A stretch of 64,000 nucleotides of DNA from an uncultured virus (IMG/VR IMGVR_UViG_3300028591_000105) (taxonomy: Duplodnaviria > Heunggongvirae > Uroviricota > Caudoviricetes), in the IMG/VR virus record IMGVR_UViG_3300028591_000105; one strand, 5' to 3'. Of this stretch, positions 2,198-43,015 are shown in pieces. The first letter of the stretch is position 1. Every line of letters starts with the position of its first letter. The position numbers and the translations under genes were made by a program. A model generated the notes under the pieces. That model was not told the DNA's origin. It did not search any database and worked only from the letters and a program-made list of their open reading frames with translations.

Positions 2198-3070
2198 TTA
2201 GCTGTTTTCCTTTGTAATAAATTTGTCTTTCAATAATTTAATTATTTCTTTTTTACTTAATGTATAAGGGATTTCCAATAAAGAAATTTTTTCTCTATTA
2301 CAATATTGTCTTTTAATTTCATCATAATGCTGCTATTTTTTAAATCGCTTTTCTCCACCAAAGAAATCTACAGGCTAATAATGTTGAATTCCTTGATATT
2401 CAATACAGGTATTAAAATCAGGTAAATAAAAATCTATATAAAGCATGTTATTATTATCTCCTCTTAATTTATCATTAACATACTAATACTAATATCTTAT
2501 CTAATAGTTTTCTAAAAACTCTTTTATCCACATTTCCCCTTTAGATGTAATGCATCCACAACTAGAAGAAAGCCCCTATCTTAAAGAGGCTCCATCAACA
2601 CTTTTAATAGTGCCGCAATTCAAGCATTTACATTTCCAATATACTTTATGTTTTTTTCTTCGTGTGTTATCTCTTTCAATAACATACCAATTATCAAAAG
2701 TTTTTCCTGTTAAATCAATCAACTACCGCTATGTAGTTAATTCTTTAGCAAGGCAGCCACAACTTTGCTTACTTCCAGATTTTAAAGTATTTGTATTTGA
2801 AGTTGTTATATTACCACAGTCACATTTACATTTCCATATTCTTTGCTACTTTTGAGAAGGAAGTTGACCGATAACTTTTAAACGTCCAAATCTTTTACCG
2901 ATTAAACTTTCTTCTTTTTTCTAAAACCATGGGTAAACATCTTGTATTTCTTTGGTCATAGTAGAATTCCAACTTTTATATCCTATTTTTCTATAAAAGT
3001 CACTTAAACTATCACTATTATTATATATTTCTCTTAGTTCTTCTTCTGAATATTTTTCCCATTTTTTCAT
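2198..3070 (-). CDS. Putative free-standing endonuclease (CxCDCG/SCGC repeats + C-terminal Vsr/DUF559-like domain)
   Basis: With TAG=Gln: LIGKRFGRL, WKCKCDCGN, SCGC, DFYLPDFNTCIEYQGIQHY; paralogue of 34920-35996. Confidence 0.75.
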
Positions 3071-3074
3071 TTAA

Positions 3075-4157
3075 TCACCCTGTACGTTGATTATAACCAT
3101 ATTGATTTGACTTATAGAAGCCAATCCAATACTTCTCTTTCTCTGTCTATTCTTCTTTTGGACAAACTTCTACAATTTCCCAAGTATAATTTTCAAGTCC
3201 ATCTTCAAACATAGCATCATATAGCTAACCTTTAATTCTTTCAATACCACAGCCACGCTTTGCATGGGTACGCCAACGACTTAAAAAGTTAGTCGTCTTA
3301 CCAATATAAACTTTCTAATTATTTATATTAGTAATCTTATAAATACCACCTTTATCCTTATTCTCGCCAAGTACTCTTTTAAATAATTCTTCAAGTCTTG
3401 ATTTATAATATGTTTCATAAATAAGTTTAAGTAGTATCTCTGGCTTTGAAAAAGAAGTAGATAATGCTTTTAACTTACTAATATCCTACTTTTCAATTTC
3501 ACTTACTTTAATTCTATAAAAGTCTGCCTATTCTCTTTTTCTTTCATCTTCCTTAAAGCGAGCAATAATTTCATTTTGTCTAGCTTCATACTTCTCTATC
3601 TCTTCAGTCAATGCCGCCTTTCTCGAATTTATTTGCTCGCTCACGACGAAAAAATCATGAGATAATGCCTCTTTCTTTTCTTTATAGTCTTCACTTAACT
3701 TAGCTAATTCAGTATTAAGCCTATGCTATTCTTCCACTATTTCTTTTTCAAGCATAGCTTGTCTAGCTTGCGCCGCCGAAGCAACTTTTTCGTTGAGTTC
3801 TTTTTCATTCTACTCATATTTCCATTTGAGTTCATTCTCTCTTTTCTTATAACACTGTTCAATTGTTGCTTGCTATTCAGAATAAAATCTATTAAGATTT
3901 AAAACCGAATCTTCTATAGATTCTTTCTATCTATTATATTCTCTTTCAAGCTATTCTTTGCGCTCTTTGTGCCGGCGCTCAATATCTTCATTAAACTCTT
4001 TTTCAACAGCATTTTTCTTTTCGACTAAACCCTATATTGCTTTTGCCTACTCACGTTTAAACTATTGAGTAGGAAGCTTCTTTATACTAAGGCGGTCAAG
4101 TAAGAAAAATATTGCTGCGCCGGCGCAGAGTCCAATGAGAATTGCAATAATTACCAT
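3075..4157 (-). CDS. Membrane-anchored coiled-coil protein with C-terminal GIY-YIG nuclease domain
   Basis: MVIIAILIGLCAGAAIFFLL TM, long charged helical region, GIYKITNINNQKVYIG...GYN; many TAG=Gln. Confidence 0.75.
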
Positions 4158-8984: not shown

Positions 8985-9056
8985 TCAATACTTCCTCCTT
9001 TATTTTTTCTATATTCATTATATCATACCTTATAAAAATTTTCAATAAGTCTGTTG

Positions 9057-9130
9057 TGCCGCCCTAGAGTTATTGTGCATTTTCAACAAAAAATCTCACT
9101 AAAATTCTACGCGCCGGCGCAGAGTACTGA
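9057..9130 (+). repeat. Dispersed ~80-bp element
   Basis: gccgccctag...ttgtgcattttcaacaa...gcgccggcgcagagtactga; colinear with 9697-9788. Confidence 0.7.
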
Positions 9131-9231
9131 GTACAACAAATTGACACTTAGTACTACCTAGCTCCTAGCAACTTGACTTTTGCCCTATACTATGTTATAA
9201 TATATATACAAAATAAAAAGGAGGTCACCCT

Positions 9232-9432
9232 ATGAAGTACTTAATAATAATGACAGCTCCCTCCCACCACTTTATGCATGAGCCAGATGATTTCATCCGA
9301 CCATACTTAGTTGAAGCAAGTGATGAAAGGGAGTTTAATGAAAAGGTAGAATATGCAGAAACATTGTTTGTAAAGGAGTACAATGTTCCACGAGTAAGTG
9401 TTTAGCTTTTACTTAAATATAAGGTTAAATAA
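9232..9432 (+). CDS. Hypothetical protein
   Basis: sigmaA-type promoter at ~9173, GGAGG RBS, one TAG=Gln. Confidence 0.6.
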
Positions 9433-9488
9433 TTAGAGATAGGAATATACTTCGCTACATATAATTAGAATTGTAGTGAGGTGAGATT

Positions 9489-9662
9489 ATGGCAACAATA
9501 GAAGATTTTGAATGTCCACTTGCCGTGCCGCACCATGTGGAAGTTACAGGTAGTAGATGGAGTGAAATAAAAGATGATTACATTGCTGGATAGCCAGTAA
9601 CAATAGGTGATAAAACTTATACAAATACCGATGATATTGTAATTTTTATCAAAGATGAATGA
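9489..9662 (+). CDS. Hypothetical protein
   Basis: GAGGTG RBS, one TAG=Gln, followed by terminator at ~9667-9697. Confidence 0.55.
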
Positions 9663-9696
9663 TATTACCCCTGAAGTACTCAGGGGTTTTCTTTTT

Positions 9697-9788
9697 TACA
9701 CTTCGCCGTCCTAGGGTTGTTGTACAATTTCAACAAAAGTTTCAAGTAAAATCTTGCTGCGCCGGCGCTAAGTACTGAAATTGACTAC
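9697..9788 (+). repeat. Dispersed ~80-bp element
   Basis: tacacttcgccgtcctag...ttgtacaatttcaacaa...gctgcgccggcgctaagtactga. Confidence 0.7.
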
Positions 9789-10034
9789 TTAATCATTGAT
9801 TGTAATATAGCACGTTGTACTATCAAATGATGATTTAAACGTGAAATAGTGCTATTTACAAATGTAGAGTAACTCACTAAGTAACGGGCCTAGCTTATCA
9901 AGTGATGTTACAGTAGCAATATAAAGATTATCAATTGTAACTAGTGGTTCTACTTTGAGACTATGGAGTACTTCATCGAAGTAGGTATAAGCAGACTAGT
10001 TATGTGTTGATAAAATTTGAATATGTAACTTCAT
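9789..10034 (-). CDS. Hypothetical protein
   Basis: AAAGGAGG RBS; 81-aa frame open with two TAG=Gln. Confidence 0.55.
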
Positions 10035-10373
10035 CAAATTCCTCCTTTCGCTTTGGATTGATTCAATTATGTAATAAATTGAAGCGAAAGTAAAGTAATT
10101 AAGTTTGTCAATTATAGAAGTTTTATGTCAATAAGTTGGTTGGTAGAGGTAGGGAGAAACAGTTGAATATATGAATAAATTATTAATAAGTTAAAACTTT
10201 TTATTAATAAAAAATTCATATATTTAGTTGCCTATGGTGAGTAATAGTAATTGATTAGTTGACAAAAATTGATAGTAAAAATTAGTAGAATTGTATAAAA
10301 ATTTAGGAAAAGATAGATAGAACTTTTATAGAGAATACTAAAATATTACTTTATAATAAAGGAGGGATGCTAT

Positions 10374-10601
10374 ATGCATACTTATGAAGAATACAATGAA
10401 CCCATTTAGAAGCTAATTAAAATAATGAGAGATGATTATCCTAATGGTATTGAGTTATGTATCAATAAAATTGGAGCAGATTTAAAGAATAATTAGACTA
10501 TACAATGTTACCTAGGAGAAGATTTTATTAAGGAAGAGTGTGGTAATGGAGAGTTGTCTATGGAAGAAATTTAGAAAGGAATGAAAAGTATGGGATATTA
10601 A
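10374..10601 (+). CDS. Hypothetical protein
   Basis: AAGGAGG RBS; three TAG=Gln; ends before bidirectional terminator at ~10616-10639. Confidence 0.55.
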
Positions 10602-10644
10602 ATAGGTAAAATAAAAACTCCCCTAGTAATAGGGGAGTTAAGTA

Positions 10645-10764
10645 TTATTCATCGTAATAACCGATGTCTACTAAATAATCGTAAACATCATCTCTAATTC
10701 TTAAAGGGACATTTTCAAGAGTTTTAAGTCCTTTCATAATTAAATTAGCATATATCTTTACCAT
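10645..10764 (-). CDS. Small XkdX/CD1375-like protein (tail-module associated)
   Basis: MVKIYANLIMKGLKTLENVPLRIRDDV...; coupled to 10770-11039. Confidence 0.65.
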   Translation of the reverse strand: MVKIYANLIMKGLKTLENVPLRIRDDVYDYLVDIGYYDE

Positions 10765-10769
10765 TTAAA

Positions 10770-11039
10770 TCACTCCATTGACTCATAAATGTCACAAAGT
10801 GCCATTTGAGTATCTAAAATATCCTGTTTTAAGCCGGCTATTTCTTCTTCTAATGCGGTCTTATATTCAATTGTATCAGGATTAATTTTTTCATCTGTTT
10901 CCTCATATGTATAAGGACAAGGATTAATATCCACTGGTTCATCATATACTAAGCCAGTTTCAACTTGAAGTAGCTTAAAACCTTCATCAGAATAATGTTT
11001 AACTAAAGTATCATTATTCAAAAATTCTTGTAAAATCAT
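10770..11039 (-). CDS. Tail-module accessory protein (XkdW-like position)
   Basis: C-terminal coiled segment LKQDILDTQMALCDIYE directly upstream of XkdX-like gene. Confidence 0.6.
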   Translation of the reverse strand: MILQEFLNNDTLVKHYSDEGFKLLQVETGLVYDEPVDINPCPYTYEETDEKINPDTIEYKTALEEEIAGLKQDILDTQMALCDIYESME

Positions 11040-11198
11040 AAGATAACCTCCTTTGAAAATTCTATTAAATAATAGAAAATATCTATTTCAGATATAAAGT
11101 AGAAATGTCTTAATATATACTCTAGAAAAAGTAGACTATTTGATTTTTATACTAGTTTATGATATAATTATAATAACAAAATAATAGGAGGAATGTAA

Positions 11199-12179
11199 AT
11201 GAAATTATAGATACTAGTACCTTAGTATAATGAAACTAAAAAAGATATTGAACCTTTATTAGATAGTTTAAAAATTTAGCAAAATATAGATTTCAATGAA
11301 CTTGGAGTCATTATTGTTAATGATGGTTCAAATATATTCTTAGATGAAGAGTGGTTAACATCTTATCCATTTAAAATAGAATATTATAAAGATGAACACA
11401 AGGGAGTTTCTGCTACTCGTAATGCCGCCCTTGATAGAGCAACTGCAGATTATGTAATGTTTTGCGATGCTGATGATATGTTCTATAATGCTTGCGGATT
11501 GTGGATAGTATTTAGAGAAATAAGTATGGGAGGTTTTAATGCTTTAATTTCCGTATTTATTGAAGAAACTCGCAATCCAGAAACAAATGAAGAAATTTAT
11601 GTAAATCATGAAATGGATAGTACTTTTGTTCATGGTAAGGTTTATAGAAGATAGTATTTAATTGATGAAGAGATTAGATTCAATCCTGAATTGACTATTC
11701 ACGAAGATAGCTATTTTAATTTCTTAGCTCAGCACATTTCTTCTGGAGATAATGTAAAAATATGTATGAGTCCTTTTTATCTCTGGAGATGGAGAGATAA
11801 TTCAGTATGTAGACATGATGAAAAGTATATTTTAAAAACATATAATAATATGTTAGATAGTTCTACTGCATTGGTTAAAGAATTATTATCTAGGAAGAAA
11901 AAAGCACTTGCAGAAGAAGTAGTGACTGGTATGATAATGGATGCTTATTTTACTATGAATAAAGATGAGTGGATAAATCAGGAAAATAAGGAATATAGGG
12001 ATAAGACTGAAAAAAGATTTAAGGAATATTATTTAAAGTTTAAGAAATTATTTGATGAAATTGATAAGTAGAAAAAGACTTAGATTATAATGGGAATAAA
12101 GAATAGAATGTATATGGAAGGATTGGTAATGGAAAGTATTACCTTTGATGATTGGATAAAAGAAGTTATGAAGTGGTAA
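11199..12179 (+). CDS. Glycosyltransferase family 2
   Basis: MKLQILVPQYNE, IIVNDGS, GVSATRNAAL, YVMFCDADD, HED; joins ORFs 11457 and 11691 via TAG=Gln. Confidence 0.9.
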
Positions 12180-12185
12180 TAAAAT

Positions 12186-12214
12186 ACCCCTAGAGGAAAC
12201 TCTAGGGGTTTTCT
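12186..12214. terminator. Bidirectional intrinsic terminator between GT2 and LRR operon
   Basis: acccctagag-gaaa-ctctaggggt flanked by A- and T-tracts. Confidence 0.8.
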
Positions 12215-13020
12215 TATGGGATATAAGATGTAATACGGTTTGAATAATAAGTCCAATTAGTTGCTGATTTATAGGCAGATACTAATGATGAGGGGACATA
12301 TATGCTGCCAAATGAGCCTGTATATGTAGATTTTGACATTGGAGTACTAAAGAAAGCATTAGAATTAGATAATGTACAAACAGATGTAGATAAAAGATAT
12401 AATGATATTAATGAAGTACAAGACTAAAAAGCATAATAATCAATAGAAGTACAATTAGGGAAGTTTACTGATGTTAATGAAGTACAACCGTAAAAAGCAC
12501 AGTAACCAATAGCAGTACAATTAGGGAAGTTTACTGATGTTAATGAAGTACATTCCTCAAAAGCATAATTATCAATAGTAGTACAATTAGGAAAACTTAT
12601 TGATGTTAAGGAAGAACAAGATTGAAAAGCATCATCACCAATGGCAGTACAGTTAGGAAAATTTATTGATGTTAATGAACGACAACCTGCAAAAGCATAA
12701 TAACCAATTATATTTTGCTCTCCTGTATAATGTTCAATGGTTTTATTTATAATTGACATAGAATTTTCATCTATAATCTCTTTATCTACATAATAAATCA
12801 TATTCCCTTCTATATCTGTTATTCTTTTTTCTTGCCAATTATTTGCATTCCAACTTCCAGAATTTTTATTAGTACATTGCCATAAGGAGTTATTATAAAT
12901 ACAAAAACTATTTATCTCATAAGTTTTTAAAGTAGAATATTGTTCAGCCAACTATAAGCGAAGAGCTTGGTCAACTAGAGTATAAGATATATTATTAAGT
13001 ATAATTTGCTTTATTGCCAT
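12214..13020 (-). CDS. BspA-type (LRR_5) leucine-rich repeat protein A, 5 repeats
   Basis: 23-aa FPNCTxIxxxAFxxCxSL repeats; C-cap GSIYVPSSLV...NWTYYSNRI. Confidence 0.85.
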
Positions 13021-13899
13021 TTAATCACCTTCATATGCTGTAATACGTTTTGAATAATAAGTCCAATTAGTTGCTATTTTATAAGAATTTACAAGTGATG
13101 AAGGAACATAAATGCTACCGAATGAACCTGTATATGTAGAATTTGACATTGGAGTACTAAAGAAAGCATTAGAGTTAGATAATATGCAAACAGAGGGAGA
13201 TAGAAGATATAATGATGTTAATGAACGACAATTTGAGAAAGCATAACTACCAATAGTAGTACAATTAGGAAAACTTGCTGATGTTAATGAACGACAACCT
13301 GCAAAAGCATCATTACCAATAGTAGTACAATTAGGAAAATTTATTGATGCTAATGAAGCACAATATTGAAAAGCATAGCTACCAATAGCAGTACATTTAG
13401 GAAAATTTATTGATGCTAATGAAGCACAATATTGAAAAGTAGAGTCACCAATAGTAGTACAATTAGGGAAAATTGCTGATGTTAATGGATTACAATATTG
13501 AAAAGTAGAGTCACCAATAATAGTACAATTGGGAAAACTTATTGATGTTAATGAATGACAAGACTAAAAAGCATAGCTACCAATAGCAGTACAATTAGGG
13601 AAAATTACTGATGTTAATGAATCACAATACCAAAAAGCAGAGTCATCAATAGCAGTACAGTTAGGGAAAATTGCTGATGTTAATGAATAACAAAGTGCAA
13701 AAGCAGAATTACCAATAATAGTACAATTAGGAAATTCTATTGATGTTAATGAAGCACAACCTGTAAAAGCACCCTTATTAATACTACTTATAATATCATC
13801 TCTTACTATATTAATATTCCTCTCTACCAAATTATTTTCAATGTCATTATAGTGATAAACTTTATTATTAGAATATAATGCTTGAAACATATCTTTCAT
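13021..13899 (-). CDS. BspA-type LRR protein B, 9 repeats
   Basis: Same repeat and C-cap; frame continues through TAG at 13564. Confidence 0.85.
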
Positions 13900-13903
13900 T
13901 TAA

Positions 13904-14596
13904 TCACCCCTCGTATGCTGTAATACGGTCTGAATAATAAGTCCAATTGGTTGCTGATTTATAGGCAGATACTAATGATGAGGGGACATATATGCTGCCA
14001 AATGAGCCTGTATATGTAGATTTTAATATTGGTGTATTGAAGAACGCATTGGAATAAATTAATGTACAAATAGATGTAGATAAAAGATATAACGATGTTA
14101 ATGAAGTACAATCGTAAAAAGGATAGTAACCAATAGTAGTACAATTAGGAAAACTTACTGATGTTAATTTAGAACAACTACGAAAAGTATAACCATCAAT
14201 ATTGGTACAGTTAGGAAATTCTACTGATGTTAATGAAGAACAATCCTAAAAAGCAGAGTTACGAATAGTAGTACAATTAGGAAAATTTACTGATACTAAT
14301 GAAGTACAACCGTAAAAAGCATAGTCACGAATAGTAGTACAATTAGGAAAATTTACTGATATTAATTTAGAACAACTACGAAAAGCACCATAACTAATAG
14401 TAGCACAGTTAGGAAATTCTACTGATACTAATGAAGAACAATCCTAAAAAGCATAATCTTTTATTTTTTTAATCATATTCTCATCTTCTATTTTAAAAAT
14501 GTTATCATTTAAAAATATTTTTAATAATTGAATTTTTTTATTTCCATAAAAAATATTATTTCTTTTTTCTAAATTTTCATAAAAAAATAATTTCAT
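13904..14596 (-). CDS. BspA-type LRR protein C, 6 repeats
   Basis: MKLFFYEN...DYAFQDC...; GGAGG RBS; missed by ORF track because of TAGs. Confidence 0.85.
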
Positions 14597-14597
14597 T

Positions 14598-15617
14598 TTA
14601 ATTACCTCCTTCATACGTTGTAATACGGTCTGAATAATAAATCCAATTGGTTGCTGTTTTATAAGAATTTACAAGTGATGAAGGAACATATATACTGCCA
14701 AAAGCACCAGTATACATAGATAATGATATTGGAGTATTGGAGAACGCATTGGAATTAGATAATTTACAAACAGAAGTAGATAGAAGATATAATGATGTTA
14801 ATGAAGTACAACTTTGAAAAACAGAATTATAAATAGTAGTACAATTAGGGAAAATTGCTGATGTTAATGAGGTACAACTCTAAAAAGCAGAATTACTAAT
14901 AGTAGCACAGTTAGGAAAATCAACTGATACTAATGAAGTACAACCGTAAAAAGCAAAGCTACCAATAGAAGTACAATTAGGAAAATTTATTGATGTTAAT
15001 TTAGAACAGCTACGAAAAGCAGAGCTACCAATAGTAGTACAATTAGGAAAACTTACTGATACTAATAAAGTACATCTTTCAAAAGCAGAGCTACCAATAG
15101 TAGTACAATTAGGAAAACTTACTGATACTAATGAAGTACATCTCTAAAAAGCAGCATTGCTAATAGTAGCACAGTTAGGAAAACTTACTGATACTAATGA
15201 AGTACAAGCCCAAAAAGCAGAGCTACCAATAGTAGTACAATTAGGAAAACTTACTGATATTAATGAAGTACAATAATAGAAAGCATAATCTCTTATTTGT
15301 TCCGCATCATTTCCTATATAACTCTTACTATAACTAGACTATATCATCCAAATTAAATCATCCCAATCTTCACATTCCATTTCTTTTTCATTTTCTCTTA
15401 CATTCATTAAATCTGCTAAATAAACCCCACTCCACATTGTACTATCCCATGTTCCACTAGTATCTCCAACGCACTAATATAATAACCCATTATTCTATAC
15501 TAAATCTCCTTCCAAATAACTTTTATTTTCATTATATTCTTCCGCAGTTATTGCTCTACCAAAAGCATCTTTAATATCATATGAATGATTATCTACTTTT
15601 ATTCCCTTAATATTCAT
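14598..15617 (-). CDS. BspA-type LRR protein D, 8 repeats, with tail-protein-like N-terminus
   Basis: MNIKGIKVDNHSYDIKD...YLEGDLVQNNGLLYQC then LRRs and C-cap. Confidence 0.85.
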
Positions 15618-15856
15618 ATGTTTTCACCTCTTATTAAATCTGTAATGGTAATTTTATTCCATTTAGCATTATTAAACTGCTCTGGAGTAGATATATCATT
15701 TATACACTCATATAATTCATACTAATAAATACAGAAGTCTCCTTTTTGATAAGTTGCTATTGAACTATAGGGTTCTGCCACCATATCATAAAAACTACTG
15801 TCTATAAAATTAACTATTGCACCATCAGGGAGCGTAATTTTTGAAATATTAGCCAT
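15614..15856 (-). CDS. Small tail-associated protein (YxxGD..YxC..W module)
   Basis: MANISKITLPDG...YQKGDFCIYQYELYEC...W; similar to N-termini of LRR proteins A and D. Confidence 0.65.
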
Positions 15857-15897
15857 TATTTTTTCACCTCTCCTTTATAAAATTTCCATTTAATATA

Positions 15898-15924
15898 AAG
15901 TAAAAATATCTTATCTCTTATCTA
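15898..15924 (-). promoter_or_regulatory. Putative phage late promoter TAGA-N19-ACTT driving LRR operon
   Basis: Same spacing at 7120, 17569, 24832, 36139, 47202 (-) and 47241 (+). Confidence 0.65.
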
Positions 15925-15983
15925 TAAAAAAGAAAAGGGTATTAATTGAATAATACCCTTTCTAAAAAATTATATTTTTACAA

Positions 15984-17057
15984 TTAGATACTAACAGGAG
16001 TAACTGTTTTGGTAACATCAGAAGCAGTGCCCTGAGTAATGCTACCATCTGGAGTATAGTTACCAGAAGCAGTAAGTTCATCCCCAACTTTAATTGCACC
16101 GGTAGGAGTACCAGAAACACTAACAGTACCAAGAGTTTGGGTAAATGTAGGCTGAGATACAGTACCTTCGGGAGTACCAGTAACTTCAATATTAGCAAGT
16201 GTACCTGTAAATGTAGGCTGAGATACAGTACCCTCAGGAGTACCAGTAACACTGACAGAACCACCAGTCTGAGTGAAAGTAGGAGACTCATGAAGTTCAG
16301 CAGTAACACTTGTTATAAAAGTCTTAGTGCCAGTTAAAGAAGGTAATGAGCCTCCATCAAAAGTAAGCGCAGTAAAACTTAGATTCTCATTAGATTCATC
16401 TACAGAAACAGAATATGCTGTTCCATTTAATTGTGCTACAGCTCCAGGATTAAGACCTACTGTTCCAGTAGTAGTGTCATCCACATCAATGGCTGGTTTA
16501 GAAATAGTTCCTGTTACAGTGGCCGTACCAGTAGAATTAAGAGGAGTACCATTAAAAGTAGGTTGAGATACAGTACCCGCAGGAGTAAAAGAACCTGTAG
16601 CTGTTAATTCATCACCAGTAAATGTGGGCTAACTAACAGTACCTTCAACACTAGCATTACCAGTAGAATTCAATGAATTACCAACAAAATCAAAATGTGT
16701 TGAAGTACCTTCCCATGTTGGATTTCCATACTCCTTAACTGTCACGCTACCTTCGTCAACAAAAGCAAAATCTCCTAAGTTTTCAAGAGAAACATCACCA
16801 AATTCTGCCCAAGCGTTACCATTAAAAATGAACTCCTTATCACCTTTAATTACTATATCGCCAGCGACAGCAGTTACATCTTCTCCATCAATTACAATAG
16901 TAGATATAGTAGAACCATTTACAATGTTTGAAGTTGTAACGCCAAGAAACTGAGTAAATTTTGCCATATCGGCAATTTGATCTCTCGCCTCTTTATCCTT
17001 TACCAGATACACATCTGAGCCAAAGGTTAATTGTGAAATATACTTATTTTCAGGCAT
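15984..17057 (-). CDS. Thr/Gly-rich repeat virion/tail fibre-like protein
   Basis: GTVSQPTFTG repeats (66-bp DNA repeat at 16141/16207); one copy has TAG at the Q position. Confidence 0.75.
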
Positions 17058-17085
17058 TAAAAATCATCTCCTTTAAAAAATAAAA

Positions 17086-17517
17086 TTATCTAATGAAATT
17101 TAATGTTTCATCAGATTCATCTATAGAAATTGAAACCTTATTGTTCCAATATTCTTTCTCTTCTTCGGTAACACCACCTGTATTAATAAAATTTAAAGCA
17201 CCAAGTTTTGTTACTCCATCTCCTATTTTTATATTCTAAACAATTTTTCCATTTTGATTATCCTAATAAACATAAATTAATCCAAGGAAACTGGTGTTAT
17301 CTTCTTCTTCTGCCCAATCTGCAGATGTTTTAATCTATATTTTTGCACCTTCTTGTCTTAATTCGTCTACTGTAGTAGAAATATTATTTACTGAATCAGT
17401 AAGAGCAGCAACCTAGGCTTTTATTTCATTAATATCTGATGGTGACATATTGCTTATATAAGATTTTGAAAAATAGTAGGGGTCAATAGTTGTATCTCTT
17501 CCTTGATTTATTAACAT
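17086..17517 (-). CDS. Tail-associated protein with KIGDG motif
   Basis: ...NIKIGDGVTKLGALNF...EEKEYWNNK; KIGDG is typical of tail fibre N-terminal modules. Confidence 0.65.
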
Positions 17518-17620
17518 TGTACCTATCCACCTCCATATAGATTATTTATCCTAATTTATCTATTTATAAAGTAAATAGGATAAAGAACCAATCTAAAAAT
17601 TTTATAATACTCCATATTTA

Positions 17621-17709
17621 TTACACTTCACGCCACCACCCTAGGAAAAATCCTAATGTGAAAAATTGCTATAAGTCCTCTAAAATTTTGATGCGGCGGC
17701 GCTTGGTAC
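17621..17709 (+). repeat. Dispersed ~80-bp element
   Basis: ttacacttcacgccaccaccctaggaaaaatcctaatgtgaaa...gcggcggcgcttggta. Confidence 0.75.
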
Positions 17710-17736
17710 GAAAAAAGACGTAGGATTTCTCCTACG

Positions 17737-18969
17737 TCAAATTTTTCCTTGTAATTCATCAAGATAGCCCGCTGCCTATGCAGTTTTACTACGTTCTATC
17801 TTGTTCAATCTTACTGTAGCAAAATAGGGAGCATATTCCTCAGAATCAGCTAACTTCAGCAATAACTTTAACCCGTTCTTGTCCTTAAACAAACTCGAAT
17901 CAGTCTGTTTAAGATCTCCATCTAGAAAAATACGAGAATTATCTCCGCAACGTGCAATAAGTAGTTTTATATGTTCATCCGTTAAGTTCTATGCCTCATT
18001 AACAATAATAATACTATTATCAAAACTTCTACCTCTTGCATATCCCATCGGTACTATCTCCAACTCCCCATTGTCTTCCATTCTCTGAATTTCATCTATT
18101 CCAACCAAATCCATTAGAGGTCCGATAGATCCAGCTACTTTATCTAGCTTCTCTCCGGGAAGTGCTCCTATATTAATTGTATTAGCAACAAAAGCATTAT
18201 TAGGAATATAAACTATCTTATTAATATTACCTTTTTCAAGCTCCTATAGCGCATAATTATTCAGAAGGTAACTCTTGCCTGTGCCCCACTAGCCGCCGGC
18301 ATAGATAATAGTAATATCAGGATTTTCCAAAGCATCAAATAAACACTGCTACTCTGCATTACCTGCTCTAGGATAAACTTTTCTAATCCATTTATTCCTA
18401 ATTTCTCTTACTTTTATCTCCTACAATTCGCCGCCGCGCCAAACTAAAATATTTAGAATAAGTCCATTATAATCTCTAATAATAAAATACTCATTCTCTT
18501 TCAAATTAAATTGAACTGGCGGCCGGCGTGAAGTAAGAACTTCTTCTAATTCTGCACTATACCCATTTTCATCAAGTTCAATCGTCCAACTCTATACTCC
18601 ACTATAGTCTTCACTGCCGCCATATCCATGTGTTTGAAGTCCGGCGATACGAGCTTTAACTTTCAAATATATATCATTAGTAATTAAAGTACCAGCATAG
18701 GATTTTGTTAGTTCAAGTAGTTTATCATCAACTGGTATCTTCTCTTCTTCCTAGCTATCGTCAAACTATAGTCTCTCAATATTTCTTGAAATAACTATTG
18801 CCGCTCGCCGTGACTAAAAAGCAACTTCAGGATTCTAATTTCTTTTTAATCCATCAAGTTCCTTTAGTACATCAGTAGCAATAATTAAATTATCTTCTTG
18901 CTATAGTATTTGAGGATATGACAACAATATATTCGTGTCAACAATTTTAAATTTACTAATACTTCTCAC
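17737..18969 (-). CDS. phoH: PIN-PhoH (PhoH2-type) protein
   Basis: VDTNIL, KELDGLK (PIN); GQWGTGKS Walker A, GALPG, RGRSF, NEAQNL, GDLKQTD with TAG=Gln. Confidence 0.88.
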
Positions 18970-19000
18970 TCCTTGGTATTAGAAGGAGTTACTACTCTTC

Positions 19001-19975
19001 TTAAACCAATTCTTTTATTTCTGTGATTGCTTTGAACAGAAGTTCTACATCAGACCTGTCTATTTCACTAAACTTAGTAGGCTTACCAAAAATATCTTCT
19101 AGTATCTTTGCCGCCTCTTCAGTCTTATCAACATCAATTAACCTTGCCCAATATGCTTTTGCTTCTTCCATTAGATTATCATAGTCTAGTTTATTATAAA
19201 CATTCTCTTCTTCACTTACTGTGCCGCCGCTATGTTTAACTTCTTCATCAACTGCATCACAAATTGCATTTACAAGGTTCTAATAAGATAGTTCCACATA
19301 AGGCTTTATATATGCAAAACGAGAGCCGGCATAGAAGCGATTATCACCTCTAAAGAACAAGTATCTCTTCTACTTGATTTCACCGTCTTCTTCTACTTCA
19401 ACCTAACGTAAATAAGCAATTGTATCAACAAGTTTATTCACAATCTAAAATGCTCTGTCTGGTAAAGCCAAGTTTATCTAGTTATATTCTTCTCCATTGT
19501 CATTCTTTAATGTTTTCTCTTTAGAATGAGAAATGAAAAATAATCCATAACCAGCAAATGCTAATTCCCTCAATGTAGAGGAAAATTCGTCATCTAGTAA
19601 CTTATAACCGCCGCCATAAGGTATTTCTTTTATTGATTGAATACCGTTCTATTCACAAATATGTCTTTCACATAATTTATACATTTCATCAACGGTATCT
19701 ATTGTTACTACATCTATCTTATCTCTTAATTCTTCTTTATTCCTAATAAGTTGTTTAACAACTTTTTTCCACTCGGACCACTTGATTATGGGCTGCACGA
19801 GCACGTTATTGAGCGCGTTAGTGCCAGGTTCAAACGAGGCAATAAGCACCTTATCCACCTGGCTCGCTAGGGTCGTTTTTCCAACCTTCGCAGCCCCGTA
19901 AATGAGAAAGAACTTACCTCTTAAATCTCTACTAATTCTCTAAGGTTGTAAATTCAATAAATCAATTTCCGCCAT
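19001..19975 (-). CDS. AAA_24/Sak4-like ATPase
   Basis: IYGAAKVGKTT, IDTVD, YGGGY, FISH, AGSRF; next to SSB. Confidence 0.8.
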
Positions 19976-20052
19976 CTAATCTCACTCCTTTTCTTTATGC
20001 TATTTCTCATATCCTAAAAAAAAATAAAGGCGACATTTCTGCCGCCTTTTAC

Positions 20053-20967
20053 TTAGAAGCCCAAATTAGGCTTTTTCTTACTTGCATTTGAAGTACTACC
20101 AGACGACTGATTCTTATTCAAAATCTCCTGCTTGTACTTCTCTCTCTCTTCAAGAGCGAGATTAACAAGGTCAGGGTCATAAGATAGAGATTCTTCAAAC
20201 CCTTCTCCGGCACCCTTCTTAATTAATAGCTCTCTGCTACTAACTGTTCTATGGCGCTTAATTGGATCACCAAATCCCTGCTCTTCTTCCCATTCAATGG
20301 TCTTGAAACTCATCTTAATAATTCCAGCTACACTTACTGTGTCGCCTTCTTCCCAATGATTTTCAATGAATGTCTTAGCATTACTACCAGGAACGTCTTG
20401 AGCAATAAGGTCGATAACATTTGCTCTTCCATTATAGCCAAAAACAATGAAACTTACAATAAGTCTTCCTGTTTCTTCGCCTTCTCTATTTACTTCCTCA
20501 CGCATCTTTCCGATTACACCAGTAAATTCAAAAGTTGCGCTGTCCTCTTCTTCTTTTCTGGCTTTATTAATGAAATTAGAACTAATCTGGAAAGTGGAGG
20601 TTATATCTCCTTTCTTATTAATGTAGATATTTTCCTCTATCTGTGCCGCATTACCACCAACATAAATCCTTGTTGCTTCATTGGGGTCATCTACAATACT
20701 CATTGGCACAAGTTCGGTACGATACTTTACAATACGGTCATAATTAGGATTAATGGTACCATCCTTTTTCTTCTTCATAGAGAACATTTGAACAGGTACA
20801 TCATTTTCAACCATTTCTCCATTTATTTCCTAGTCTACTCTAATAGTAGCACGACCACGGACATATTCACGTCCATCAGCAGTCTTATCCTCTCTAATAT
20901 CTAACTCACTTAAAAGTCCATTAATTGTAAGATTATTTACTGATTCTACTTTCTTAGGGTCTAACAT
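20053..20967 (-). CDS. Single-stranded DNA-binding protein (phage type)
   Basis: OB-fold-like beta-rich sequence, low-complexity tail ending in F; start at 20967 via TAG=Gln. Confidence 0.65.
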
Positions 20968-21061
20968 TCTTAAATTCCTCCGATATACTTAATTCTTTGT
21001 AACATAAAATAAAAAGGTTTATTTAGGAGGGGATAACCCCTCCATTTATTAACCTTTAAAA

Positions 21062-21488: not shown

Positions 21489-21860
21489 TTAATTAGGTTT
21501 AGTAAGTTTCTTAAATAGGTCTTCCGCTGCAACCTTAGCCTTTGTAATCAACTCTATTTGTTGTGTCCAAGAAGTTGCCAAATAGAAATAAACAAGTGCT
21601 ATATCATTTATTTCAGCAGTGGTAAAATTAAAGTCGTTATTTAGTACCTTTCGTCTAAGTTTTTCATACTTTGTAGTGTCCTTAGCCATACTCAATACAT
21701 AATTCTTCCACTAATCTTCTGCTTCTAAACCAGTTTTAATTTCTCCATGTTCATTAGTATATTCTTTTAATTCATAAAGTCTGTCTAGCAGAGCATTTAG
21801 CCCTGCTATTGTATCAGACTAATGTTCTTTTATAAGTGTTATTTTATCTTCATTATTCAT
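21489..21860 (-). CDS. Hypothetical protein
   Basis: Frame extended upstream through TAGs; overlaps gyrA end. Confidence 0.6.
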
Positions 21861-24800
21861 CCTATTCCTCCCATACGAGGTCTACAACTGTTTCGCCGGT
21901 CTTCAATTCAACTCCTTTTACTCCAAGTGCTGCTCTGCTTAATACTCGTAGGTCGGCAGTAGAAATTTTAACCGTTTTCTTATTTACTATAATAATTATA
22001 TCACAGTCGCTTTCCAAAGTCAAATGCTTAACTATTGTTTCATTTTCTTTAACATCAGATATTTTCTTACCTTTTATACCACGAGAACAAATAGGAAAAT
22101 CATTCATTGAAGATTTTTTAATCGTACCACAATCAGAGATAGTTATTAAATACTCTGCGCCGGCCGGCACTTTCTGAGCATCTATAACGTAATCATTATC
22201 TGCTAGTTTAATACCCTTCACGCCGGCGGCCGCACGACCAATTGGATTGATAGAGGTAGTGTCAAGACGAACACAATTTCCGTTGTGAGTGAGAAGTGAA
22301 ATATTTTCATCATTAAGGAATAGGACTTTAACTACTTCATCATTTTCTTTAAGATTAATTGCCTTAATAGACTTGCCGCGCTTTATCTTGTATTCCTTTG
22401 CATAAGATTTTTTTATCATGCCTTGCTTAGTAATAAAGATTAAGAATCCCTCTGAGGGGCGGCGCTTTATAGTTGTAAGAGCAGTTGGAATCTCTCCAGT
22501 AGAAAATTCAAAGAGTTGTGCGATATTTACCTTTGCATTAAGAGGTAAGTCATCAGTATTCATTTGATACATTTGTCCCTTATTGGAGAATACAAGCAGT
22601 GAACTAAAGTTATCATCACGTAAAGTCTTTACTATTGTTTCATTATTACTAAGTTTTACTTTTGTTCCCTTGGTGCCGCGATGAGTGCGAATTAGAGTTG
22701 TAGATTCAGTGGCGTAGAGATTACCAAGATTTGTATAGTGGATAAGAAGTTCCTTTTTCTCAATTGGCTCTGCATCTTCATCTTCACCCTTAAAATCTAA
22801 ATCCATTAACTTAGTTCTACGACTATCGCCATATTTCTTAATAACCGCTCTCATTCCTGCTTCAATTTCTGCATAAAGTAAATTAGTATCATTAAGAATT
22901 TCATCTATTTTTTCAATAGATGCAATTAACTTCTCTCTTTCATCTTTAAAAGACTGAATTTCAAGATTGATAAGTCTACTAAGAGTCATTTTTAAAATAG
23001 CATCTGCTTGTGGTCCATTAAACTCAAAGCGATTAATTAATTTAACTTTTGCGTCATTCTTATCAGCCGCACTCTTAATTAATGCCACTACTTCATCTAT
23101 ATTGGCAATTGCAACCAGAAGTCCATCAATAACATTAATTCTTGCAAGCATTTTATTTTTATCATACTCATACATTCTTGTCTTACAATCTATCTCATGG
23201 TCAATATGAGCAAGTAAGGCATCTCTCCAACCAAAAACTTTAGGATAAGTTCCGTGGTCAAGCATTACCATATTAATAGTGTAATTGTTCTCAAGACTTG
23301 TAAGTTTATATAACTGTTTAATAATCTTATTAGGATTAATATTCTTTTCAAGAGTAATTTTAAGTTTTGATTTAGTAGTTGAATTATCATTTACCTTTGC
23401 AATACCAATAATCTCTCCATTATTAATTAAATTTTGCAACTGTTCCAAAATAGTATTTACATATACTCCATAAGGAATTTCAGTAAAAGTAATTGAATTG
23501 TCGTCTGCATTATAATCTGCAGTACTTCTAAGCCTTATTGAGCCGCCTTGTCCAGTTTTTAAAATTTCCTTAACTCTAGAAGCATTAAGAATTGTGCTTC
23601 CAGTGCAAAAGTCAGGAGCGCAATATATTTCATCAAAAGAAACTTCTCTATTCCAAAGGAGTTTAATCATAGCTTCATTTACTTCAGCTAAATTAAATTG
23701 AGGAATAGAGCAAGCCAATGCTGTCGCTATCGAATTTATCCATTATTTCTAATGGCTCTGACTATCTTTTAATCACATAAAGTGACGACACCATTTCGAG
23801 TAACGTATCAATAGTTACCCTACGTCTCCGCTCCGAGACTAGTCGATACAGGTTCTCCAGTTATTTTTGAAATACGTCTTTTTGGATAAGAAGTCCTTAT
23901 AGGATATCTCTCTCCTTCTATTCGATGACGTTTTCCAGTGTTGATGTCTGAAATTGTATCTCTACTACATGAAAATAATTTAGCAATATAAACTGTAGAA
24001 AATTCTCCTTCTTTTAACAAAGAAATAATTTCTATCAATTCATCAGGAGTAATCTTATGTTTATTACTTTTTCTTATAGGATAGCTTAACATAGGATTAT
24101 AGTGCGCTTTTCCCTAATTAATCCTATGACATTCTGATAAAGAAACACCAGAAATTTTACTAATAGAAGAAATAGGTTGCTCTGTTTCTTTTAACATTTT
24201 AATAATTTCTTCATATTTATCTTGTGTAATACTAACAGGATTAGTAAAACCAGTTTTACATTTATTTTCTTTGCGAATAGGATAATTTATATTAGGATTG
24301 TAATAAGTTTTTCCAAGATTAATTTTAGAAATAGTATCTTCATGGCAATTAAATCTTTGACTTATTTCAATATTAGTGTATCCTTGCTCTAATAGCTATC
24401 TTATTTCAATTATTGTGTCATTAGAAAATTTGGCAAAAGGATTTTTTTCTGACAACAAATCCATCCCGCCTTCAGTTAAATTATATCCCTTATCTTTCTA
24501 ATTTGAAGAAAAATATTTTATCCAATATCGCTCTTTTTCAGAAAGTATTTGATAATCTTCATCAAATATTTCTTCTAAAATTTCAAATTCTACTTCGCTT
24601 ATTGAATTATAATATTTTTTTAAAGCATTATATAAAACAGACTATCTATTATCAGTATAATGTTCTTTAATTCTTCGTTTTATATCATTTGATAAGCCAA
24701 TATAACTTTTTCCATTAGGAAAAATTATTCTATAAATACCTATAACTTTCTAATTTAAATCATTAATTTTCATGTGGACATCAACCTCCTAGAGTTTCCC

Positions 24801-25453
24801 ACGGGATTATCTTTTATTTTCTTCAATTATAAAGTATTTTTTTAATTTTAAAAATCTAATAAATTGAGGAAAACAGTCAGACTTCCCCGTTAGCTAAGAG
24901 ATTGCTCTTAACCCCGTTGATGAAACGGAAAAGTGTTACACAGGCATAGTTACATACCTAACGAACCATTACATATATTATAATATCCAAGCGACGGCAC
25001 AACAGAAGGAAATTGTTCTGTATTATCATAGTTATCAAACCATTTATCTATACAGTGCTTGTCTACTCCATCATAAAGTAAACAGCCTAATTCCCCTAGA
25101 CGCATTTCAGTATAACGTGCCGCACTAGCTTTACCATTAGAAATAGTGCCGTACTGTCCATCAAAATCTTCAAGTTTATAGCGCATATTATAATCCTTTG
25201 CCATACGGACAAGGAGGTCATAACACGCCGCATCACCATGAACATAAAAATGGTCCATCGCGGCAGAAACGGACTTGACTGACTTTTTAAAAGGCTTCTT
25301 ATAAGTTATTTTTTCTAATAGCTGAGCATACATACATTGTCTCGCCGCCGGCTTTAATCCATCTCTAGCATCTATCAATGCTCTATCGAGTATAGTCATT
25401 GCAGCATATGTAGAAAAACTTTCATTTACTACACTTAAAATATCTATATCCAT
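21853..25453 (-). CDS. gyrA: DNA gyrase/topoisomerase IIA subunit A, spliced (exons 25453-24956 and 23730-21853)
   Basis: DGLKP, HGD, AARYTE, NGSLG|IATALACSIP joined across intron; beta-pinwheel CTD. Confidence 0.92.
23731..24955 (-). mobile_element. Group I intron in gyrA
   Basis: Exon ends GGU; P1 UAGGU|AU pairs with AUGCCUG (U-G at site); GACUA...AAGAUAGUC P7; terminal G; removal restores frame. Confidence 0.88.
23808..24773 (-). CDS. Intron-encoded GIY-YIG homing endonuclease with repeated HTH modules
   Basis: GIYRIIFPNGKSYIG, GYNLT, repeated ISxINxGK...YPIR units; TAG=Gln. Confidence 0.85.
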
Positions 25454-34123: not shown

Positions 34124-34927
34124 TTACTAATCATCACGACGTTTTGGTGGTTTTGGCGGCGGACATGGTGCTGGCGCGGGGATAAACCAAGGATAATATC
34201 CAATTATCTATGGAGGACAATTATGGGCTTCTTTTACGGGAGCATCTTCTTTATGATAAGTAGCTATATGTCTATATCTGTCATCATCTTCACAAACATT
34301 GTAGTTAGTAAATTGATTAGAATTTCTAATACCTTCTCTTTTTTTAGGAGAAAACTATTTGCATCTTAACTAACAATAGAAATTAGTTGTATTTATAATG
34401 TCTTTTTCTTTTAATTCCTTTTCCCATTCTATTCTCTCCTTTCTCCACTCTGCAAGAGGAGTCTAAAGTGATTCAATCGACTCTTCTTCCATTTCAAATG
34501 GTATTCCATAAAGTAATTCTCTTCCCATGTCTGAAGTATACTTATCAAAAGATTCGTCATATTTAAAAATAAATAAAACATAATACTCATCAACTTTAAG
34601 AAGAAGCTTTATCGTGTTTTTAGAAGAAAATCTTGCGTTTAAAAAATTTGCTTCTGTAGCGTCTTTATTAAGTGGTTTAACTACATAAGTTGTAGGAAAT
34701 ATAGTTATGTCCTAAAACTCAAAACCAGTGAATCCCGTATCACAAAATAAAATCTCTCTATCTAAGTTAGGCGCACCTAAAATATTCTAAATTAATGTTA
34801 CCGTTTTTCTATAATCAGATTGTATTGAACATACTTCTCTCTTATCACATTTTAAACACTATATTTCTATTTGTGTATGCTTAGGGTCTTCCTTTATATA
34901 GATGGGATTTAAATATAATTCATGCAT
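34124..34927 (-). CDS. Hypothetical Cys-containing protein with Pro-rich tail
   Basis: Start, end and coupling to neighbours fit a TAG=Gln frame; ends PAPAPCPPPKPPKRR. Confidence 0.6.
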
Positions 34928-35996
34928 TTATATAACCTCCTATCTTATCTAATATATAATTAGAATCTATTTTATTTTTATCTTTATAGCAGATTTCAAT
35001 TAAAGGAATATTATTCTTATGACAATATTCTCTTTTCTTATTATCATAAATTTGCTATTGTATATATCCTTCTTCACCACCCCAAAAGTCCACTGGTTCA
35101 TAATGCTATCTCCCCTAATATTCTATTAAACATTTTAATGTATCATTTTCAAAAATAGCAAAATCAAAGCGTAAAACCTTATTTGTTCCAATTAAATCAG
35201 GAAAACTATATTCTTGTTCATATTTAATGTTCATTTTTTTAAAAAGTTCCTATAAAAATACAGTTGATTTTGTAGTATTTTTGCAGCCACAGCTTGAATT
35301 TTCTTTTATACTCTAAGCTGTTCTGTAGCAGATATTTCCACAACTGCATTGACACTTATAAACAATATTGCGGAATTTTCTTTCTTCTGTCTCTTCAATT
35401 ATTGTAAGTTCACCAATTTTATCTCCTTTCTAAAACTTTTTATTATTACTTGCTTTAATTTTCTATAAACATCCGCAACTTTTAGTATTTCCACTAATTA
35501 ATTTATTTGTCTATACATAAGTTATATTGCCACAGTCGCATATGCATTTAAGTTTAGGTATCCCATCAATATATTTTATTTCTGGCGAAACTGTTAAAAG
35601 CCCAAATTTTTCTCCTACAATACTCTCTCCTCCTTTTCTTTTACCCAAACCACTCCTTGAATGTTCTTTGGCTAAGCAACCACAACTTTTTGTGTTGCCA
35701 CTTTTTAAATTTTCTGTTGATACATTATATTTTATATTGCCGCAGTCACATTTACAAAGCCAGCGACGTGATTGATTTATACTTCCTTCATATTCAATAA
35801 CAACAAGTCTTCCAAATCTTTGTCCTATCAAATTATAGTCTCGTTCTTTAAAATCACACCAAGAGTATTTTTTCTTTATATCTCTTGTAATACTTCTATT
35901 TGAATATCCAATTTTATTGGCAAATTCAGTTGCAGTTTTTGACGAATAAAAAATTTCTTTAAGTTCTTCTTCTGAGAAACGTTCCCATCTTTTCAT
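34920..35996 (-). CDS. Putative free-standing endonuclease (CxCDCG/SCGC repeats + Vsr-like domain)
   Basis: Three Cys modules, then LRFDFAIF...LIEYQGRQHY; paralogue of 2198-3070. Confidence 0.75.
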
Positions 35997-43010: not shown

Positions 43011-43015
43011 TAAAT

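Follow-up and report, generated by a model that had tools for sequence, protein, structure and literature searches.

The 64,000-nucleotide (nt) stretch of DNA held in IMG/VR as IMGVR_UViG_3300028591_000105, from an uncultured member of the Caudoviricetes, was analyzed over its whole length (hereafter the window). Its minus strand carries four adjacent genes, A to D, which span exactly positions 12214–15617 and encode paralogous leucine-rich repeat (LRR) proteins of the BspA/TpLRR type, solenoids of 22-residue turns with a common C-terminal cap. We consider it probable that these are binding proteins diversified by ordinary duplication, gene conversion and selection, and that they are host-surface adhesins rather than products of programmed shuffling. 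An initial annotation made from the sequence alone had described the array as a repertoire of shuffled LRR modules within a phage tail module, independent of reverse transcriptase (RT) and analogous in logic to the variable lymphocyte receptors (VLRs) of lampreys. That annotation was right on RT-independent recombination and focused diversity, but its "shuffled modules" were overstated and its VLR-like programmed repertoire was wrong or unproven.

The frames of A–D are open only when TAG is read as glutamine (TAG=Q), and on that reading the four adjacent genes lie exactly where they had been placed. The four genes contain 10 in-frame TAG codons in total. With table 11 the frames were broken at 'AF*SC', and reading TGA as tryptophan did not restore them. 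Six of the 10 TAGs fall at position 13 of the repeat unit, which is occupied by Q more often than by any other residue (11 of 28 units), and a relative that is not recoded has AFQxC at the equivalent place. Since A–D are continuous only under TAG=Q, the TAGs sit at a Q-rich position and the relative has Q there, the sequence argues strongly that this phage reads TAG as glutamine. The reading suits the entire window, in which many long open reading frames (ORFs) with family matches contain in-frame TAGs; the PhoH gene (17737–18969) has 12, and two giant ORFs within 39204–45979 carry 15 and 20, the latter in an ORF of 990 amino acids (aa). No suppressor tRNA, nor any other tRNA, was found in the 64-kb window. 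The use of code 15 by phages has been described before (PMC9523058, PMC11210395).

All four proteins matched the Pfam family LRR_5 (PF13306, 'BspA type leucine rich repeat') with E values of 3e-47 to 8e-42 and scores of 142.6–160 bits, against a gathering cut-off of 27.7. Tandem Repeats Finder gave a period of 66 base pairs (bp) or 22 aa, with 4.6, 8.5, 5.5 and 7.2 copies in A, B, C and D, and not the 69 bp and 23 aa first reported. The consensus of the 28 units is FPNCTxIGxxAFxxCxSLTSVx. Units of the FPNC type number 4, 8, 5 and 7 in A–D, and the repeat counts of 5, 9, 6 and 8 in the initial annotation are obtained when one degenerate leading unit is counted per gene. Variation is indeed focused at x positions on a fixed framework: eight positions of the unit are variable (6, 8, 9, 10, 13, 14, 16 and 22, with entropies of 2.1–2.7 bits), whereas I7, F12, C15, L18 and S20 are invariant in 28/28 units. 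The cap, which had likewise been seen in all four genes, is 56 aa long and 80–90% identical at the DNA level.

An AlphaFold2 model of D was built on a 41-sequence alignment. The predicted local distance difference test (pLDDT) score exceeded 90 from about residue 100 to residue 339, which comprises the LRR and cap, and the model predicts a strict 22-residue strand periodicity. The best Foldseek matches to this model were 4fs7, 4gt6 and 4fdw, structural-genomics LRR_5 proteins; Treponema pallidum TpLRR (6mlx) aligned over 173 columns with a root-mean-square deviation of 2.7 Å and 31% identity, and pneumococcal PcpA was also matched. Each turn of the model has a three-residue strand at positions 20–22 and a two-residue strand at 6–7. 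Six of the eight hypervariable positions (8, 9, 10, 13, 14 and 16) lie between these two strands, whereas S20, P2 and N3, the x positions on the strand face, are conserved. The inter-strand stretch is the 'variable segment' in the LRR nomenclature of highly conserved and variable segments (HCS/VS) set out in PMC2946307 and PMC5976695. More than 6,500 homologues at E≤1e-10 were present in a protein collection, nearly all of them unnamed metagenomic proteins, the best being 62% identical. The names EpCAM_N and Herpes_gI carried by some homologues are spurious, being low-complexity or cysteine-pattern matches under the cut-off. By eye, the N-termini of A–D are not hydrophobic, and no signal peptide or wall anchor is apparent.

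BspA/TpLRR proteins are thus the same family (E values down to 3e-47), with the same fold and the same 'IGxxAFxxCxxL' core. Solved members are Bacteroides ovatus BACOVA_04585 (4fs7), a Faecalibacterium prausnitzii cell-surface protein (4gt6), T. pallidum TpLRR (6mlx) and PcpA (4cp6). The TpLRR consensus has 23 residues with an L..L.LP...I...AF..C core. A–D differ in their 22-residue repeat, in being encoded by a phage with TAG=Q, and in forming a four-gene tandem array with a common cap.

Exchange between the genes was seen in the cap. The initial annotation had called the caps mosaic, and this was upheld: the identical runs are 75 nt in A/C (run-length test, p<5e-5), 34 nt in B/D (p=0.0025) and 32 nt in A/B (p=0.007), with the B/D run lying inside the A/C stretch and the A/B run just upstream. 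Of 21 parsimony-informative cap sites, 12 group A with C and B with D, seven group A with B and C with D, and two group A with D and B with C. These partitions are clustered, with four switches among the 21 sites (permutation p=7e-5). A mosaic this clustered and significant shows that the A–D paralogues have undergone gene conversion or recombination with one another.

Recombination by copying of intact units was not seen. No two of the 28 units are identical (378 pairs), the maximum being 59/66 nt (89%), a value reached both within genes (B5–B6 and D1–D3) and between genes (C2–D5); mean unit identity is 74.2% within genes vs 72.4% between genes. Since no unit pair in the window exceeds 89% identity, no recent event is visible there. 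The DNA strings that the initial annotation had quoted as recurring cassettes are present (at 12677/13289, at 12479/14301/14935 and at 12419/13559), but they do not demonstrate module sharing. They are 16–22 nt long, and in-register exact runs of at least 16 nt occur in 106 of the 378 unit pairs, so strings of this length are what the conserved framework gives. Diversification by recombination or gene conversion is therefore borne out for the cap but not as the shuffling of intact 66-bp units.

Relatives of the locus were collected through the protein of the GT2 glycosyltransferase gene that converges on the array. A search of IMG/VR with this protein gave 146 relatives, of which the best 80 loci (59–69% identity) were kept; these include some duplicates of one contig or near-identical pairs. 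Among these best 80 of 146 loci, at least one LRR ORF was found in 73, at least two in 27, and an LRR ORF within 300 nt of GT2 in 63. By this synteny the GT2 gene is a conserved partner of the LRR genes across a large phage clade. It might modify a receptor glycan or the LRR proteins themselves. Units of the relatives were selected with a regular expression that matches framework amino acids, which leaves synonymous codons unbiased and degenerate units out.

Framework codons proved to be fixed genome by genome. All 24 units scored in the window use TTA for L18 (vs 39% TTA among the Leu codons of 14 other window genes), 23/24 use TCA for S20 (vs 19% usage in the same 14 genes), 24/24 use ATT for I7 and 23/24 use CCT for P2. 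Locus L077 fixes other codons (P2 CCA in 50/50 and L18 CTT in 49/50), as does L078 (P2 CCA and L18 CTT, each in 42/42); L014 has I7 ATA in 21/22 and S20 TCT in 20/22, and L023 has L18 CTC in 23/25. The nearest unit was found in the same genome for 24/24 units of the window and for 47/50, 40/42, 22/22 and 25/25 units of the other arrays. Units of L077 are on average 90.5% identical within their own genome and 83.1% identical to those of L078, although the flanks of the two loci are 91–93% identical. The four L077/L078 orthologue pairs contain 21/13, 17/10, 14/22 and 4/10 repeat motifs, and unit pairs at least 95% identical number six in L077 and three in L078. The genome-specific codons, the nearest units in the same genome and the L077/L078 contrast together show concerted evolution, in which duplication, loss and conversion of units outpace the divergence of the flanks.

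The x positions behave otherwise. Nucleotide diversity in the window is 0.51 at codon positions 1 and 2 of the eight variable codons vs 0.105 at framework third positions, and the same excess was present in 5/5 arrays examined, which argues that selection has driven the x positions apart or kept them apart. Comparison of the locus in related phages, which the initial annotation had proposed as a check, gave a divided answer: repeat number has changed in 4/4 L077/L078 orthologues, but six pairs of closely related contigs have a collinear LRR gene of unchanged repeat number. In those six pairs the identities of the LRR gene and of the rest of the locus are 99.65/98.58, 87.3/96.7, 89.9/89.3, 97.2/98.7, 99.9/97.2 and 99.75/99.97%, so that LRR divergence relative to the locus is higher in three, lower in two and equal in one. 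The ratio of nonsynonymous to synonymous substitution rates (dN/dS) for the whole LRR gene is 0.54 in L030/L040, 0.17 in L045/L046 (in which the scored units are unchanged) and 0.11 in L020/L026. At the variable positions it is 0.94 in L030/L040, where the framework gives 0.26 and the neighboring GT2 gene 0.03, but 0.05 in L020/L026. Judged from these sequences, a specificity once set is usually conserved, and its turnover is episodic and lineage-dependent.

The evidence for exchange and concerted evolution would also fit a dedicated, high-frequency diversifier that needs no RT, in which the 66-bp modules and caps recombine, perhaps through the phage's Sak4-like protein, to give new LRR surfaces within a population. 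Such a system would be a recombinational counterpart of diversity-generating retroelements (DGRs), with the logic of lamprey VLRs or of repeat shuffling in fungal NOD-like receptors (NLRs). The cap mosaic, the genome-by-genome homogenization of framework codons, the changed repeat numbers between L077 and L078, whose flanks are 91–93% identical, the unit pairs of at least 95% identity in these loci (signs of recent duplication or conversion) and the Sak4-like gene nearby all suit it. We nonetheless hold it to be quite unlikely. The window units, none more than 89% identical to another, show no recent event, the LRR genes stay collinear in six close phage pairs, and dN/dS of orthologues does not exceed 0.54. 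Searches with nhmmer using unit and cap profiles gave 28 and 4 matches, all in A–D and none elsewhere in the 64 kb, so donor cassettes are absent from the window. All four LRR genes are complete and each has its own ribosome-binding site (RBS); all are therefore set up for translation and none resembles a silent cassette. Neither a deaminase nor an invertase appeared in the Pfam and PHROGs scans of window ORFs, a result that applies to the window only. Independence from RT, as the initial annotation had it, was confirmed within the same scope: the scans of window ORFs (8 + 36 ORFs with Pfam, 18 further large ORFs with PHROGs) gave no RT, and RVT_1 was present in 0/5 records of relatives, of which three have a completeness of at least 96%. 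In L077 (9981–15882) and L078 (9966–15785), both TAG-recoded, one LRR gene faces three on the opposite strand, an arrangement that could in principle permit inversion between repeats.

Lamprey and hagfish VLRs are assembled somatically from an incomplete gene and hundreds of flanking donor cassettes with the aid of AID/APOBEC-like deaminases. A–D resemble them in combining an LRR framework that does not vary with hypervariable x positions and a conserved C-cap, and in RT-independent, gene conversion-like copying. Unlike the VLRs, the phage has four complete genes with their own RBSs and no module copied intact; the 64 kb contain no further cassettes, and the ORFs scanned include no deaminase. 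The programmed repertoire proposed from this likeness found no support. Moreover, the diverse face of VLRs is the concave sheet, whereas in the model of D most of the hypervariable positions (six of eight) fall outside the main beta-strand of the turn.

Two further explanations of the array, misassembly of the metagenome across repeats and DGR-type mutagenesis of the variable positions, seem to us scarcely credible and were rejected. The region is repetitive, and k=31 contigs of sequencing run X1 break into pieces of 350–520 bp there. Run X1 (sheep gut) contains 0.93 of the sampled window words, compared with 0.08–0.11 for runs X2–X4, and is probably the source sample of the window DNA. Across the k=31 contigs of all four runs the array is fragmented, with joints that have sides of 20–45 nt or other LRR-like letters, maybe from other LRR genes. 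However, exact repeats in the array reach at most 75 nt, below the usual read length of about 150 nt, and X1 contigs bridge the A/B (12669–13106), B/C (13458–13979) and C/D (14332–14686) junctions with 0 differences, although as X1 may be the source sample these bridges are not independent. The four frames are open and the model forms a regular solenoid. DGR-type mutagenesis is opposed by the lack of an RT or a template: none of the window ORFs scanned encodes an RT, and RVT_1 is absent from the five relatives' records. The framework adenines are also invariant (ATT 24/24, TTA 24/24, TCA 23/24), unlike the outcome of adenine-directed mutagenesis.

DGRs use an RT and a template repeat to mutate adenines, and their usual target folds are C-type lectin or immunoglobulin-like. 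The receptor-binding protein Mtd of Bordetella phage BPP-1 is reportedly diversified in this manner. A–D are similar to DGR targets in being phage-encoded, putative binding proteins with diversity focused on few codons, but have no RT in the ORFs scanned, no extra repeat copy in the 64 kb, invariant framework adenines and an LRR fold. The name 'Tentaclins' is given to DGR-diversified phage receptor-binding proteins in a further report (PMC10743442).

Closer in evolutionary logic are the sensor repeats of fungal NLRs (WD40/ANK/TPR, HET-E/D type), for which one study describes concerted evolution, shuffling of repeats within and between genes and positive selection on exposed residues (PMC10197012). 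They are the closest of the known systems, as here too the framework is homogenized, paralogues have exchanged sequence, few positions are hypervariable and repeat number varies. The fold and organism are different, unit DNA identity in the window is 72–89% and orthologues are often under purifying selection. The array is thus a known family with a concertedly evolving repeat-sensor logic, unlike VLRs or DGRs. Trichomonas vaginalis TvBspA offers another lineage-specific TpLRR/BspA-like expansion, with repeat segments that vary between paralogues and isolates; it is eukaryotic, with hundreds of dispersed genes, many with transmembrane domains, and the link drawn between one TvBspA subfamily and C. 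difficile phages concerns a glycine-rich domain and not the LRR (PMC2843621). In the SPLASH preprint, the authors judged an LRR_5 signal to be probably an incidental association with an element resembling a miniature inverted-repeat transposable element (MITE).

What A–D do was judged from their homologues and surroundings, and we put the probability that they are virion adhesins or fiber heads, that is, receptor-binding proteins, at roughly one half to two thirds. In relatives the LRR with the same cap often forms the C-terminal end of proteins of 570–2100 aa, and a CotH-like region was present in 4 of 12 long LRR proteins scanned. Four proteins of 1100–2100 aa combine a fiber-like N-terminus, a CotH-kinase-like region and a C-terminal LRR_5/cap (L069:2146-7842, L073:2402-7903, L023:864-7193 and L015:4543-7776); their CotH-kinase-like matches have Pfam E values of 7e-6 to 8e-5, near the cut-off. 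The neighbor of the LRR gene in L002 matches the tail-fiber and minor-tail PHROGs phrog_14726 (E 5e-7) and phrog_1446 (E 2e-7). In L077 the locus adjoins a holin, a late-gene context, and is also flanked by RNA-repair genes. Three near-complete relatives have 23 of their 25 LRR_5 matches at a single GT2 locus.

The tail-module setting claimed for the array held only in its immediate surroundings, where three upstream ORFs look fiber-like; the wider neighbors are PhoH, Sak4, topoisomerase II and GT2. The first of the three, ORF80, is a stand-alone copy of the N-terminal domain of A and D and has a weak match to phrog_972, 'tail fiber protein proximal subunit' (E 0.001). ORF80 is 36% identical to the N-domain of A, compared with 30% for that of D and 22% where ORF357 begins. 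ORF357 has no Pfam or PHROG family; it contains a 66-bp, 22-aa repeat of its own, with 2.7 copies at 16104–16283. ORF143 matched no Pfam or PHROGs family at E<0.001. Its 'KIGDGVTKL' motif may be similar to tail-fiber N-termini.

Multi-fiber host-recognition loci are found in phi92, CBA120 and phAPEC8-like phages. The array resembles these in its paralogous, putative binding proteins set side by side, with N-terminal motifs in common, swappable C-terminal heads and variety made by recombination. It is unlike them in that the heads are BspA-type LRRs and not beta-helix spikes or knobs, two of the four genes are without the N-terminal domain, and the locus lies amid replication genes and is tied to GT2.

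Several findings weigh against the reading of A–D as adhesins diversified by ordinary means. A test for recombination within units, resembling the pairwise homoplasy index (PHI) test, reached significance in L077 (p<0.0002) but in neither the window (p=0.70) nor L078 (p=0.96). General positive selection was not seen among orthologues, of which only L030/L040 nears 1 (0.94). A megablast of positions 9000–21000 against 50,697 phage records for close relatives gave no match, PhoH-anchored scans of IMG/VR and metagenome contigs found relatives only at ≤48% identity, and the locus comparisons are all in lineages more distant than this phage. In regard to function, the only PHROGs matches of A–D are 35892 and 18805, both of unknown function, and no tail, baseplate or fiber family of Pfam or PHROGs matches them. 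The N-terminal domain in the AlphaFold2 model of D has a pLDDT of 38–60, too low to name its fold. B and C have just 33–44 residues before the repeats, without the N-terminal domain of A and D that would be an obvious virion anchor. Replication and nucleotide-metabolism genes are the wider neighbors of the array. Lastly, helicase and methyltransferase genes surround the LRR homologue of an annotated Lachnospiraceae phage; hence phage LRR_5 proteins need not be structural. The LRR homologue of a crAss-like phage has a 2178-aa hypothetical protein on one side and, on the other, hypothetical genes followed by an endolysin-terminase block.

The position among replication and nucleotide-metabolism genes, the Lachnospiraceae phage homologue, the short N-termini of B and C and the lack of structural family matches would also suit a role outside the virion, with A–D made in the infected cell or released at lysis to bind targets other than the phage receptor. 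Those targets could be a host protein, for takeover or anti-defense, or surfaces of the gut habitat (mucus, plant fiber, protists). We regard this as possible although rather improbable, as it does not account for the LRR and cap at the ends of very long fiber-like proteins in relatives, the tail-fiber PHROG matches beside the L002 gene, the N-terminal motif that the ORFs directly upstream have in common with A and D, or the holin adjoining the L077 locus.

The locus has the layout of a single late-type transcription unit with a candidate promoter, in the order candidate promoter, strong RBS, ORF80, D, C, B and A without spacers, and terminator-like hairpin (Table 1). The Shine-Dalgarno sequences of C, B and A are encoded in the 'YEG..' last codons of the preceding gene (D, C and B, respectively). 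The true start of gene C is likely the ATG at 14596, with GGAGG 8 nt upstream within the last codons of D. The TAGA-N19-ACTT motif reported in the initial annotation is present on the minus strand just 5' of ORF80. It occurs 11 times in the window vs 5.2 expected, a count reached by 1 of 100 shuffles, and 10 of the 11 are on the minus strand. The sites include 6642, 7120, 15898, 17569, 36139, 39054 and 47202, two of them being just 5' of ORF80 and ORF143. The motif is possibly a phage-specific promoter, and we treat it as a candidate and no more. A scan of the window for sigma-70 promoters was uninformative (35 sites vs 42.3 expected). A CBM_5_12 match in gene D (E 2e-4) was under the Pfam cut-off and was discarded.

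Table 1 Features of the LRR array and its surroundings in the window.
Feature	Position	Strand	Description
GT2 glycosyltransferase	11199–12179	+	Convergent with the array; PF00535, E 3.7e-15
Bidirectional terminator-like hairpin	12186–12209		10 pairs; between the ends of gene A and the convergent GT2 gene
Gene A	12214–13020	−	268 aa; ~98-aa N-terminal domain like those of D and ORF80; 5 LRR units (12399–12708); C-cap 12229–12396; LRR_5 E 3.3e-47
Gene B	13021–13899	−	292 aa; 33-aa N-terminus; 9 LRR units (13209–13784); C-cap 13039–13206; LRR_5 E 5.8e-46
Gene C	13904–14614	−	236 aa from first ATG; 44-aa N-terminus; 6 LRR units (14090–14457); C-cap 13919–14086; LRR_5 E 8.1e-42
Gene D	14598–15617	−	339 aa, 5 in-frame TAG; ~100-aa N-terminal domain; 8 LRR units (14789–15290); C-cap 14619–14786; LRR_5 E 7.7e-42
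ORF80	15614–15856	−	First gene of the unit; stand-alone copy of the A/D N-terminal domain; strong RBS
TAGA-N19-ACTT motif	15898–15924	−	Candidate phage promoter just 5' of ORF80
Terminator-like hairpin and T-run	15933–15962	−	Ends the upstream fiber-like gene; divides it from the ORF80-D-C-B-A unit
ORF357	15984–17057	−	Fiber-like; GTVSQPTFTG-type repeats; N-terminal 'I..I.L....Y.I.D' motif in common with A, D and ORF80
ORF143	17086–17517	−	Small; coiled segment and 'KIGDGVTKL' motif; TAGA-N19-ACTT upstream at 17569–17595
Sak4-like annealing protein	19001–19975		From family scan of large window ORFs

The window is from a large phage, probably of the ruminant gut, and encodes a Pol III alpha-like polymerase, topoisomerase II, NrdD, a ligase, helicases, PhoH, an endolysin and several homing endonucleases. 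Distant matches in named Lachnospiraceae and Ruminococcus phages (about 32% identity) give only a hint of the host. The A-type subunit of topoisomerase II appears split into a 167-aa N-terminal piece (24950–25453, DNA_topoisoIV) and a 621-aa remainder (21853–23718), with a GIY-YIG homing-endonuclease gene (23808–24773) between the pieces, which suggests that an intron or a free-standing endonuclease has been inserted. Another gene that looks interrupted is a RecJ-like one, in which a LAGLIDADG-type ORF (57534–58355) lies between an ORF with the DHH N-domain (56788–57267) and one with the RecJ OB-domain (58584–59669). Further HNH and GIY-YIG endonuclease genes are found at 2198–4157 and 34920–35996. 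The adjacent giant ORFs at 39204–43010 (1268 aa) and 43007–45979 (990 aa) have N-terminal halves that are alike by eye, and neither matched a Pfam or PHROG family.

For A–D as ordinarily diversified adhesins, we propose the following course of events. The family would have arisen as whole genes and 66-bp units were duplicated in tandem by unequal homologous recombination, possibly aided by the phage's own Sak4-type annealing protein. Conversion would keep the framework homogeneous, while selection for differing binding specificities would drive the x positions apart or keep them so. The proteins would be adhesins, most likely tips or accessory heads of virion fibers, that recognize variants of the host cell surface. 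On this view the array would broaden or hedge the range of hosts on an evolutionary timescale, and not by a programmed switch within one infection. A bolder picture is that these large, TAG-recoded gut phages maintain a bank of LRR heads that renews itself, with Sak4-catalyzed homeologous recombination re-sorting the arrays so that a population holds many specificities, and with the adjacent GT2 acting on the same glycan; we think this unlikely, if slightly less so than the dedicated diversifier considered above.

Gut bacteria and protists have BspA-type LRR proteins in abundance, and the ligands of these proteins are mostly unknown. In the literature we found no paper on BspA-type LRR proteins or arrays as parts of phage host-recognition or fiber loci. 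Under the standard code A–D are invisible, and the whole family will escape any annotation pipeline that does not allow for TAG recoding. The arrays are a textbook case of concerted evolution with focused hypervariability. If they are receptor-binding heads, they would provide a modular scaffold of 22-residue turns, each with about eight specificity positions, from which the host range of uncultured rumen and gut phages might be read and eventually predicted, and a natural test of how homogenization and diversification of repeat proteins are balanced without a dedicated mutator.

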